From an uncultured Pseudobdellovibrionaceae bacterium (GTDB lineage: Bacteria > Bdellovibrionota > FAC87 > UBA2466): DNA of 64,000 bases. The translations under genes were made by a program, and so were the position numbers. This document shows, one piece after another, positions 43,727-45,909 of this stretch (the stretch's first letter is position 1; each line of letters starts with the position of its first letter). Location of the stretch: assembly GCA_964611895.1 (NCBI GenBank), contig CAZTDN010000019.1, forward strand, positions 577-64,576, written 5' to 3'. The notes beneath the pieces were generated by a model that was given only the letters and a program-made list of their open reading frames with translations, had not been told where the DNA came from and did not search any database.

Positions 43727-44010
43727 TGAGCTCAAACACACACGAACACCACTCTCTTACTCCGTATTACATTGTGTACCTGCTCTTGATGGTGGGGCTA
43801 GTGGCTACGGTCTGGGTGGCCTATCATGACTTTGGGGTCATCGGGACCCCACTTGCTATGGCTATTGCGACTACCAAGGCAGCGCTGGTTGTCTGGATCT
43901 TCATGCACGTCAAAGATTCTAGCCCCATTATCTGGATGACTATTGGAGCGGGGCTGGTCGGGCTGGCGCTCGGGTTCATCTTCCTGTTTTCGGACTATTT
44001 AGCGCGCTAG
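43726..44010 (+). CDS. caa3-type cytochrome c oxidase subunit IV (CoxQ-like small membrane subunit)
   Basis: TAATG overlap with subunit III. ~94 aa, two TM helices, His-rich N-terminus. Position matches subunit IV of caa3 operons. Confidence 0.6.
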   Translation: MSSNTHEHHSLTPYYIVYLLLMVGLVATVWVAYHDFGVIGTPLAMAIATTKAALVVWIFMHVKDSSPIIWMTIGAGLVGLALGFIFLFSDYLAR

Positions 44011-45909
44011 ACCATCAAATCCACAGGGCGGTTCAGGGGGCGGGCTCTTTCGGCTTTTTTCGAACAGCGCTCTTGAAGTCGCCGCTGCTGAATCGAAAAG
44101 GATTTTCATCGTCTGAGGCGTGAGGTCGCTCACTTTGAGGTGCTTGTCAAAGGCAGCTCGGTGTTTGTCGTTGCGTAATATCCACCAAGCTTGAATGATC
44201 TTTTCTTTTTCAGACGGCGCCTGAGTTTCTAAGGCGTGCTGAAAGGCGATTTCGATGTCCTCTTGTGGTGTGTATTCCGGTATTCCGAGGATTCTGTAGG
44301 GATTGAATTCCTTGGGCCAGTTGCTGGGTCTTTCTTGCTGCAGCCTGAGTTCCGCTTCCTCCAGGAGTTCGGCGAGTGCGCGTCTTTTTTCCACAGCGGG
44401 TACGTGTCGGGAGTGGATGATGGCCGCGTATTTCTTTCGCAAAATGGGGTTTGTTAGCGTTTCATAAGCGGCTTCAATTTTGTCTTTTTCGTGTTCTCTA
44501 TTCGGGTCCTTTAGCGCCGCAGCGTAGTAGGCGTGGAGCTTGTTTTCTTGGAGGTTGCTTGGAGCCTTCAAGAATGCATGCAAATCATACGTGTCTATCG
44601 AAGGGTGTGGCGAGTGCAGACTTTCTAAGTCCGACCGGTACTGTGAAATCACCTGATCTTGGTACTTCGACCTGAGCCCACTATCGTACCGCTTCCTCCA
44701 GGTTGGGTCGGTGAGTATCCCGACTCCTTCACTCAGAGTCGCTAAACGCGCGGGGTCGTGTTTGTTTTCTTGAACCTTTTCCAGATAGGCGTCCCAAATC
44801 TCGTTCGCAGAGGCATTGGGTGAGACGCCCAACAAAGCGTAAAAAGTGTTTTGCTTGAGAGGGGAGATCGCTGTGGCTACCGCGCTCCTGGTGGCTGAGA
44901 GGGAAGGTGTCTTTATTCGTACGAGTTCCATTGCCTTTTGTTGTTGGTCGGCGTCGACAAAATGTTTTTTAGCAAAGCGTTCGAGTCTTTTCCGGGTTAG
45001 GTCAGTGGTTTCTTGGAGTACGACGGAAGGCTTGGATTTTGATTGGGAGGCGAGTGTTTCTAACTGATTCAAAACCGAGACCACGGTCTCCAGGTCTTGC
45101 AGAGTTTCTATGCCGACTCTTTCGGAATCTAATTTTTCTTCCATCATTCGGATCGCGGTGCGTAAGGTTTTCGATTTCATATCGGCGGCATGCGCAAGCG
45201 GCGCTGTCCGGCGCGCGAATTCAGCTAGCGAGACGCCTTTGACCAACAGGTGGTCCAGCAGAGCCTCTAGGTTTGATCTGTCCTCTATTAGCTGCGCTTC
45301 CTGAGAAAACTGGGCGATGTCCTGGTCGGCAGTAGTACCACCTGTTTTGTTTTTGAAGCCTAGGGCAAGTCGGCTGTCGTAACTCATGCGAGTGCTAGGG
45401 TGGAGAAGGATGCGGGCGGCTTTTTCAAGGGTAGACTTTTCTTCAGGCGGCGCGTTTTTAGCTTTGGATTCAAATGCCGCGCGGATTTGGCCAGCGGTGG
45501 CATTGTAGTGGACTCCTAGCAGCCGATAGAAATTGTGTTCAGGATTTACTTCCTGGATAAAGGGAACCTCCCCACGGGTTTTTGCCATCTCGATGATTTT
45601 AGCGATGTCCTTTTTGGCAATGGATTCTCGAGGGTGAGGATCCGCAAGGCGAGCGTCATATTTTTTGCGAAGTTCGTCATCAAAGAGCACACTGGCAGCT
45701 TCGGCGAGTTTTTTTTTGAGCTCTGGATCGGGTGTTTGGCGGATGGCCGTTTGATAGTTCTTTAGGAGTTCGTCCATGCCCGCCGATGGAGAGGCGCCAA
45801 TACGTTCGTATAGATTAGTCGAGCGCGGGTCAAACGCTTCGGCTGAGCTCCAGTATGCTGGCAAGTGAAGCAGCGCAGCAACGAGTAGTATTTCTCGACG
45901 GGGGTACAC
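43999..45909 (-). CDS. secreted all-helical protein with four degenerate J-domain-like repeats lacking the HPD motif
   Basis: Signal peptide MYPRREILLVAALLHLPAYWSSAEA. Four copies of an x(F/Y)YxxLGVxxxAxxxEIxxAYxxx module (NFYRLLGVHYNATAGQIRAAF; TFYALLGVSPNASANEIWDAY; NPYRILGIPEYTPQEDIEIAF; NLYERIGASPSAGMDELLKNY), each followed by (R/K)xxYD. None has a canonical HPD. Confidence 0.6.
   Translation of the reverse strand: MYPRREILLVAALLHLPAYWSSAEAFDPRSTNLYERIGASPSAGMDELLKNYQTAIRQTPDPELKKKLAEAASVLFDDELRKKYDARLADPHPRESIAKKDIAKIIEMAKTRGEVPFIQEVNPEHNFYRLLGVHYNATAGQIRAAFESKAKNAPPEEKSTLEKAARILLHPSTRMSYDSRLALGFKNKTGGTTADQDIAQFSQEAQLIEDRSNLEALLDHLLVKGVSLAEFARRTAPLAHAADMKSKTLRTAIRMMEEKLDSERVGIETLQDLETVVSVLNQLETLASQSKSKPSVVLQETTDLTRKRLERFAKKHFVDADQQQKAMELVRIKTPSLSATRSAVATAISPLKQNTFYALLGVSPNASANEIWDAYLEKVQENKHDPARLATLSEGVGILTDPTWRKRYDSGLRSKYQDQVISQYRSDLESLHSPHPSIDTYDLHAFLKAPSNLQENKLHAYYAAALKDPNREHEKDKIEAAYETLTNPILRKKYAAIIHSRHVPAVEKRRALAELLEEAELRLQQERPSNWPKEFNPYRILGIPEYTPQEDIEIAFQHALETQAPSEKEKIIQAWWILRNDKHRAAFDKHLKVSDLTPQTMKILFDSAAATSRALFEKSRKSPPPEPPCGFDGLAR

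Follow-up and report, generated by a model that had tools for sequence, protein, structure and literature searches.

The 64,000-nucleotide window analyzed here, the whole stretch of DNA at positions 577 to 64,576 of contig CAZTDN010000019.1 from an uncultured Pseudobdellovibrionaceae bacterium (assembly GCA_964611895.1), contains at 43999..45909 on the minus strand an intact reading frame of 636 codons with a GTG start and a stop codon at 43999-44001. According to the list of open reading frames (ORFs) and Pfam DnaJ, it encodes a protein with multiple J-like modules. J-domains are regarded as dedicated Hsp70 switches that work where ATP and Hsp70 exist. The explanation that we tentatively favor, at somewhat less than even odds, is that this J-like protein is a Sec-exported, all-alpha modular protein whose five J-derived modules serve as structural or protein-binding units and no longer as Hsp70 co-chaperone switches. 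In a wider sense, and with just as much reserve, the export, by bacteria of a poorly sampled lineage, of J arrays that lack the His-Pro-Asp (HPD) tripeptide, are often fused to GNAT acetyltransferase domains, and end in a conserved cysteine-bearing tail may mean that the J fold has found a second, Hsp70-independent use beyond the cytoplasm, either as an envelope scaffold or holdase tethered via the cysteine or as a secreted decoy directed against the chaperones of another cell.

J-like modules and loss of the Hsp70-coupling features

The original prediction had described four J-domain-like modules in this protein. In a Pfam search with the whole protein, DnaJ (PF00226) matched in five stretches with E=2.1e-20 and 73 bits (cut-off 27.8), and the only other family over its cut-off was RPT (PF13446), a repeat of the J clan (38.3 bits versus 28.2). 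The four predicted modules were recovered with Pfam DnaJ, but the count of four was wrong because a fifth, degenerate copy is present at residues 442-496.

All five modules are encoded on the minus strand and were assessed with Pfam, with a family hidden Markov model (HMM) that was iterated on the family's own J-like modules (alignment of 54 modules), and by the predicted local distance difference test (pLDDT) values of an AlphaFold2 model. Module 1 comprises residues 32-86 (45652..45816; Pfam E=2.6e-4, family HMM E=1.6e-19, pLDDT 83-88), module 2 residues 126-179 (45373..45534; Pfam E=2e-5, family HMM E=3.6e-19, pLDDT 76-90), module 3 residues 355-410 (44680..44847; Pfam E=2.3e-6, family HMM E=1.4e-20, pLDDT 74-87), module 4 residues 442-496 (44422..44586; Pfam E=0.038, family HMM E=1.3e-13, pLDDT ~50), and module 5 residues 536-589 (44143..44304; Pfam E=6.6e-3, family HMM E=3.4e-17, pLDDT ~45-53). 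When the modules were scored singly, module 3 alone reached the Pfam DnaJ gathering score (28.0 bits). In the degenerate module 4 (DLHAFLKAPSNLQ...RKKYAA), Pfam recognized only the second half, corresponding to helices III-IV, and the family HMM covered this copy end to end (positions 1-55). End-to-end matches to the family HMM were obtained for all five modules, with E<=1e-13 in each case.

Sequence matches in the PDB linked module 1 to the J-domain of Sis1 and module 3 to the J-domains of DNAJA1 and Tid1. With the whole protein, NCBIfam gave only partial DnaJ-type matches, which were far under their cut-offs. A match to the NCBIfam model 'ActJ cold adaptation' was discarded, since the model is a small J-domain model and the similarity does not go beyond the J-domain; ActJ is mentioned in a single paper that we found, the description of an actinobacterial species.

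The AlphaFold2 model has a mean pLDDT of 60, with values of 74-90 in modules 1-3 and of ~50 in modules 4-5, and displays a short-long-long-medium pattern of four helices in every module, modules 4-5 included. Foldseek placed solved J-domains on this model with a probability of 1.00 and a root mean square deviation of 1.1-2.8 Å over 55-67 columns, the target template modeling (TM) score reaching up to 0.78. In pairwise comparisons the modules were 19-41% identical to each other, which indicates that the duplications are old. The structural core kept in the family modules (LY.RLGV..NAS...I..AY and L..AY.VL.DP.LR..YD) is retained in its J-fold residues in all five modules of the query. The presence of J-domain-like repeats was thus borne out by the Pfam matches of the modules, by the four-helix pattern, and by the Foldseek probabilities, and judged by sequence profiles and predicted structure the repeats are true J-domain homologues.

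An HPD tripeptide was found neither in the query modules (0/5) nor anywhere else in the protein nor in the family modules (0/54). At the corresponding loop positions, modules 1 to 5 read TPD, APP, HDP (within KHDP), KDP, and QAP, and the loss of HPD that had been predicted for every copy therefore extends to the fifth one. The family module spans 56 positions compared to 63 in the Pfam model, the ~7 missing residues belonging to the loop between helices II and III. For helix II we calculated net charges of 0, +2, -3, 0, and -4 in modules 1 to 5 and a family mean of +0.3, compared to +3 to +6 in DnaJ, CbpA, Sis1, and DNAJA1, and the query modules thus fall short of the positively charged helix II that is used for docking to the nucleotide-binding domain of Hsp70. 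H33, P34, and D35 make the key contacts to DnaK, and no system tested retained ATPase stimulation once they were substituted (PMC8215388). As HPD is missing, the helix II-III loop is short, and helix II is devoid of positive charge, stimulation of Hsp70 by the five modules appears very unlikely from their sequence. The combination of a kept J fold with a corrupted HPD corresponds to the definition of J-like (type IV-like) proteins given in PMC9470956.

The query modules have the same four-helix fold as canonical J-domain proteins (DnaJ/Hsp40, CbpA, DjlA, and HscB) and share with them the core (L/Y)Y..LGV...A....I..AY in helices I-II and L..AY.VL.DP..R..YD in helices III-IV. Besides the absence of HPD, the loop shortened by ~7 residues, and the non-basic helix II, the query differs from them by its five copies per chain, by the lack of G/F, Zn-finger, and client-binding domains, and by a signal-like N terminus, whereas the canonical proteins are cytoplasmic.

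Type IV J proteins, such as the exported J-domain proteins (JDPs) of Plasmodium (e.g., RESA), Pam16/Magmas, and DNAJB13, resemble the query in having a J fold with a corrupted HPD and a less basic helix II. Their role is structural or regulatory instead of stimulating an ATPase, and we propose the same for the query. Pam16/Magmas are mitochondrial HPD-less J-like proteins with a non-catalytic role. In contrast to the bacterial query with its five modules, type IV proteins are eukaryotic, possess one J-like domain each, and contain other partner domains (PHIST, MEC), and there is no specific sequence relationship to the query beyond the J fold. The type IV JDPs of Plasmodium leave the cell that produces them (PMC9470956), and DNAJB13 was noted as HPD-less (PMC10410713). 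Tandem J-related helical modules in one polypeptide, as in the query, are also found in the fungal UCH proteins that contain Pfam RPT; the query modules score better as DnaJ (E 1e-4 to 1e-6) than as RPT (~0.03-0.07), and the organisms and the protein context differ. Further Foldseek matches fell on two J folds that are integrated in large assemblies, one of them a chain of the respiratory supercomplex of Tetrahymena and the other a chain of 296 residues (8j07_U) from the doublet-microtubule repeat of the human axoneme. With the Plasmodium JDPs, Pam16/Magmas, and these two chains, there are precedents for a structural role of J-domains without HPD.

Predicted export and the family of relatives

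The original prediction also held that the protein carries a cleavable signal peptide. The putative Sec signal peptide comprises residues 1-25 (45835..45909, minus strand; MYPRRE / ILLVAALLHLPAYW / SSAEA, followed by FDP), in which n-, h-, and c-regions and an AxA site can be discerned and which contain the most hydrophobic stretch of the protein (Kyte-Doolittle hydropathy of 2.7-3.4 over 8-10 residues). Cleavage is predicted after AEA25, and module 1 begins 7 residues later. We applied a crude signal rule that asks for a basic residue, a hydrophobic octamer within the first 20 residues, and small residues at -3/-1. This rule was passed by 10 of the 12 family members including the query (9/11 relatives) compared to 13 of 53 ORFs of the window (binomial p ~4e-5), and a hydrophobic N terminus was present in 11/11 relatives, including the two that failed the rule. 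The flanking charges, positive before the hydrophobic core and net-negative after it, fit an N-in/C-out orientation, and in most family members an AxA-type site follows the core. The claimed signal is plausible by these heuristics (n/h/c regions, AxA site) and conserved across distant relatives, and the J-like protein is probably exported by it. A twin-arginine (Tat) reading of 'PRREILL' was rejected, because RR is present in only 2/12 family members, which leaves Sec and not Tat as the default. The compartment reached by such export, the envelope or periplasm, contains no ATP, no DnaK, and no acetyl-CoA.

The GTG start codon is preceded by a weak Shine-Dalgarno (SD) sequence of -3.7 kcal/mol, the range in the window being +0.4 to -9.2. 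The sole other possible start before module 1 is a TTG at codon 16, which has no SD sequence (+1.2), and on these grounds the GTG appears better supported than the internal TTG. The base composition of the gene is unremarkable.

In NCBI-derived data, the identical protein forms the singleton cluster P0001 and is located on three NCBI contigs. A word-indexed search of 5.8 billion clusters, performed with the protein and then with the family alignment, returned only the query itself, and an exhaustive HMMER scan of 1.84 billion representative proteins gave 32 at E<=1e-3. We recognized 11 distant family relatives (P0003, P0004/P0033, P0005, P0006, P0008, P0012, P0013, P0014, P0018, P0023, and P0027), which are 15-22% identical to the query in full-length alignments and 26-35% identical in the stretches matched by phmmer. 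The metagenome-assembled genomes GCA_964616705.1 and GCA_964492125.1 belong to relatives. No match was obtained in a scan of GTDB genomes with the query's own peptides, tblastn against plasmids found no match to the J-like protein, and a scan of metagenomes with the subfamily alignment yielded one additional fragment only. The best non-self match, P0002, was not accepted as a family member, since its six near-identical tandem canonical HPD J-domains are different in kind.

Most relatives consist of a signal-like N terminus, one or two GNAT domains, four to five short-loop HPD-less J modules, a helical domain of ~175 residues, and a cysteine in the tail; one of them is labeled 'DnaJ-class molecular chaperone/GNAT superfamily N-acetyltransferase' by JGI. 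The GNAT domain is recognizable by Pfam in 5/11 relatives and divergent, unseen by Pfam, in 6/11, and in the query neither Pfam nor NCBIfam gave a GNAT match. An AlphaFold2 model of P0033 (pLDDT 80, predicted TM score 0.52) shows a GNAT domain, four J folds, and a confident helical C-terminal domain. The GNAT part of this model is similar to solved acetyltransferases, with a Foldseek match to a Coxiella acetyltransferase (E=2e-5, probability 1.00). The divergence of GNAT in 6/11 relatives and its absence in the query fit a setting in which acetyl-CoA chemistry is dispensable.

The query has in common with this family the short-loop HPD-less modules, the signal-like N terminus, apparently part of the helical domain, and the lone C-terminal cysteine, and differs from it by the missing GNAT domain and by the position of the helical domain. 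This domain follows the last module in the relatives, whereas the corresponding piece of the query lies between modules 2 and 3, indicating that the query architecture is rearranged. The piece is part of a central all-helical region (residues 190-350, 44860..45342, minus strand; AlphaFold2 confidence ~40-50), in which residues 226-297 match positions 35-105 of the 174 positions of a C-terminal-domain HMM from the 11 relatives (14.5 bits, E=1e-6 for a single target). In addition, phmmer pairs residues 24-294 of the query with residues 492-752 of P0008. Judged by these alignments, the query is not an isolated oddity but belongs, as a rearranged member without GNAT, to a very rare family, in which it has no close orthologue.

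The C-terminal tail (residues 595-636, 44002..44127, minus strand; ...PPPEPPCGFDGLAR) holds C629 (nucleotides 44023-44025), the only cysteine of the protein, which stands 7 residues from the C terminus (...PPCGFDGLAR). A cysteine at a distance of 6-20 residues from the C terminus was present in 12/12 family representatives and is usually the sole one of the mature protein, the mature family proteins being nearly cysteine-free except for this residue. In most members G or A stands before it (PPC-GFDGLAR, AAC-DGLDAL, KGC-RFDYLN, and others), and it lies downstream of a 'PPD(L/Y)LS..LR..RD' helix. A lipobox, a CaaX motif, and a sortase-type CTERM signal were considered for this tail and rejected, as no transmembrane segment follows the cysteine and the cysteine is not located at -4.

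Short-loop HPD-less modules (~49-57 residues) also occur in small proteins without a signal (P0009, P0011, P0015-P0017, P0019-P0021, P0024-P0026, P0028, and P0031), where 1-4 copies stand by themselves or follow immediately on a single canonical HPD J-domain; modules of this type are thus not confined to the exported family. Another protein, P0007 (1774 residues), has a signal-like N terminus and three J-domains with full-length loops and without HPD. The largest survey of J proteins was designed to exclude sequences without HPD or with multiple J-domains (PMC10410713), which accounts for the fact that the short-loop HPD-less class appears to be uncatalogued. Our literature searches turned up no J-like protein of bacteria that is exported or periplasmic. 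As HPD-less J-like proteins are already known, the modules do not represent a new kind of domain; bacterial signal-bearing J-like arrays appear to be undescribed. If the protein is truly exported, prokaryotes would have turned the J fold into a building block for use outside the cytoplasm, and the family would offer a handle on an unfamiliar envelope or secreted function. The short-loop HPD-less J modules, exported and cytoplasmic, form a class missing from current J-protein catalogues, and in genome annotation such proteins should not carry the name 'molecular chaperone DnaJ'.

Proposed role and alternative explanations

In the role that we consider for the J-like protein, it would be translated from the last cistron of an operon with Fur, PAP2, and rhodanese genes and exported via the N-terminal signal peptide, which would be cut after AEA25. 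In the ATP- and DnaK-free envelope, the five modules together with the helical linkers could form an elongated, ATP-independent scaffold or adaptor, and the conserved lone C629 may make an intermolecular disulfide or another covalent tether.

Several observations weigh against this proposal. The h-region of the putative signal is short and contains His and Pro. The gene calls for P0004/P0033 disagree on the inclusion of the signal, a point that SD strength does not settle, and one relative has an alternative ATG just past the signal-like segment. Five relatives keep a recognizable GNAT domain, and P0033/P0004 retains an RxxGxA-type CoA motif, as read from the sequence. Genes for a SIR2 deacetylase and a Macro protein (L085 6690-7991) are located directly upstream of the GNAT-bearing P0013, which represents a cytoplasmic acetylation theme. 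AlphaFold2 confidence is low in modules 4-5 and in the central region, the query has no close orthologue and purifying selection is therefore not measurable, and there is no known partner, conserved neighbor, or phenotype. As GNAT domains need acetyl-CoA, which is missing from the periplasm, two further explanations stay alive, a secreted effector and a cytoplasmic or membrane-anchored protein.

An effector or decoy that is secreted and acts in a prey or host cell is an unlikely alternative. In that cell the modules would attach to Hsp70 or other targets yet leave them unactivated, and in the relatives the GNAT domain would acetylate targets at the expense of the victim's acetyl-CoA. A signal in combination with GNAT, the latter documented by the fold of P0033 and by Pfam in five relatives, is chemically sensible only where acetyl-CoA exists, and the family is patchy, rare, and without conserved synteny, as is often the case for effectors. 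Exported HPD-less J proteins of Plasmodium act in the host cell (PMC9470956). On the other hand, no secretion-system genes were present beside any member at the examined loci, the query itself has no GNAT domain, the charge of helix II for Hsp70 docking is lost, and the operon partners Fur, PAP2, and rhodanese are of the housekeeping type.

We regard it as fairly improbable that the protein is cytoplasmic or anchored in the inner membrane. In that case its hydrophobic N terminus would either act as an anchor that is not cleaved or result from a wrongly chosen start codon, and its modules would function in the cytoplasm, for instance as partners of true J-domains or of DnaK in the way in which Pam16 pairs with Pam18. 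The usual location of J-domains and GNATs is the cytoplasm, HPD-less modules are found in the small signal-less proteins, sometimes after a canonical HPD J-domain (P0009, P0011, P0021, and P0028), and the SIR2 and Macro genes next to P0013 and the differing gene calls for P0004/P0033, with their indecisive SD strengths, point in the same direction. This explanation is opposed by the charge distribution, which favors an N-in/C-out topology, by the AxA-type sites after the core in most members, and by the fact that the query has no start between the signal and module 1 save the SD-less TTG.

It is quite improbable that the gene is an evolutionary remnant, that is, a rearranged and decaying copy of the family which lost GNAT, had its domains reshuffled, and retains little or no function. 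Such an origin would agree with the singleton status among 5.8 billion clusters, an architecture permuted in comparison to all 11 relatives, the degenerate module 4, and the low identity of the modules to each other (only 19-41%). However, the frame of 636 codons is intact, the core residues of the J fold are kept in all five modules, and the family hallmarks at both extreme ends, the signal-like N terminus and the cysteine tail, have been retained. Furthermore, the gene is closely spaced with its operon neighbors, and nothing in its composition stands out.

The original prediction had proposed a periplasmic chaperone-like or assembly factor for the adjacent caa3 oxidase or alternative complex III (ACIII). 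As predicted, the arrangement with the oxidase genes is convergent, the 3' end of the J-like gene overlapping coxIV (43660..44010, plus strand; Pfam COX4_pro, PF03626) by 12 nt. coxIV is the last gene of a complete ACIII-Sco1-caa3 respiratory cluster identified by Pfam at 31973-44010 (plus strand). The first, ACIII part of this cluster encodes a multihaem cytochrome, an Fe-S subunit, an NrfD-like protein, ActD, and a cytochrome c and is followed by two ORFs without a Pfam match; the second part encodes Sco1/SenC, coxII with a cytochrome c domain, coxI, coxIII, and coxIV. Besides the adjoining position, the occurrence of Sco1 and a signal-bearing redoxin nearby and the J-fold subunit of the Tetrahymena respiratory supercomplex speak for an oxidase factor. 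We checked co-occurrence in a sample of 80 other caa3 loci, which were collected from named genomes of many phyla via a CoxI scan (CoxI identity <=70%). None of them (0/80) had a relative of the J-like protein within 10 kb of caa3, and cox or act genes were absent from the relatives' loci examined (0/7). With this lack of co-occurrence and the location of the J-like gene in a different, convergently oriented operon, the proposal is largely refuted and appears very improbable.

The possibility that the repeats are TPR- or Sel1-type helical repeats merely mimicking J-domains, as an all-alpha and repetitive protein might suggest, is practically negligible, as Pfam returned no TPR or Sel1 family even at E<=10 with the whole protein or with single modules, but only DnaJ and its clan relative RPT, and the sole TPR-containing Foldseek match was P58IPK, itself a J-protein (probability 0.66 versus 1.00 for isolated J-domains); with no TPR/Sel1 signal anywhere, the refutation that the original prediction had itself named did not occur, and the J-like nature of the repeats stands.

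Genomic context of the J-like gene

Upstream of the J-like gene, three genes follow each other on the minus strand. The nearest one (45923..46240) encodes a single-domain rhodanese of 105 residues (Pfam E=1.5e-16; GlpE/PspE/MoeZ-C-like in NCBIfam), and its stop codon lies 13 nt before the start of the J-like gene. The second (46194..46787) encodes a PAP2-family membrane phosphatase of 197 residues (Pfam E=7e-19) with a weak NCBIfam match to the undecaprenyl-diphosphatase SepP, and the third (46787..47230) a Fur-family regulator of 147 residues (Pfam FUR E=1.5e-30), which scored similarly as Fur, PerR, and Zur in NCBIfam, each below the cut-off. At the sequence GTGA the stop of the Fur gene runs into the start of the PAP2 gene, and at its 3' end the PAP2 gene shares 47 nt with the rhodanese ORF. 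Just upstream of the Fur-PAP2-rhodanese-J set there is a small signal-bearing ORF, which extends the operon-like packing (45923-47552, minus strand). The gene order makes the J-like gene the last of this set, and because of the 13-nt gap and the overlapping stops and starts we infer co-transcription as an operon. Promoter and terminator scans at the J-like locus gave nothing above chance, and no palindrome resembling a Fur box turned up ahead of the operon.

In an all-against-all comparison of neighbors, no gene was common to the family loci save an MsrAB block at two related loci and a generic rhodanese-domain match. The two related members, P0013 in L085 and P0014 in L086, adjoin genes for an MsrAB protein with a signal and for an uncharacterized membrane protein; further on at these loci, TonB, a thioredoxin-like protein, and Fur are encoded. 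In L086 (8001-12124), P0014 (684 residues) and a 690-residue protein matching P0027 are tandem paralogues whose genes overlap by 4 nt. The pair is divergent from a membrane protein-MsrAB-DNA_alkylation-VanY operon, which is also present beside P0013 in L085. The thioredoxin-like and Fur genes are ~8 kb from P0014 in L086, and in the window a signal-bearing Redoxin/AhpC-TSA protein is encoded at 48638-49177 (plus strand), ~3 kb from the J-like gene; both findings may be coincidence.

The respiratory cluster is preceded by genes for an electron transfer flavoprotein (ETF) subunit and a putative Na+/H+ antiporter (PF07399, E=5.6e-168). No Pfam or NCBIfam family was found for the ORFs at 47268-47522, 49174-49632, 49476-50543, 50509-51411, 51476-52828, and 23559-25253, and such a run of family-less ORFs suggests a poorly characterized lineage. 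Several of them have signal- or lipoprotein-like N termini, for example those starting at 49174 (...FAIACGLASC) and 51476 (MKLRLLVLFQIVCVAWNSFA). RCC1-repeat proteins are unusual in bacteria; one with a lipoprotein-like N terminus (…VVLSSC) is encoded at 53020-54279 (plus strand; PF00415/PF13540). A single tRNA gene at 52878-52950 (plus strand) is the sole Rfam match in the window.

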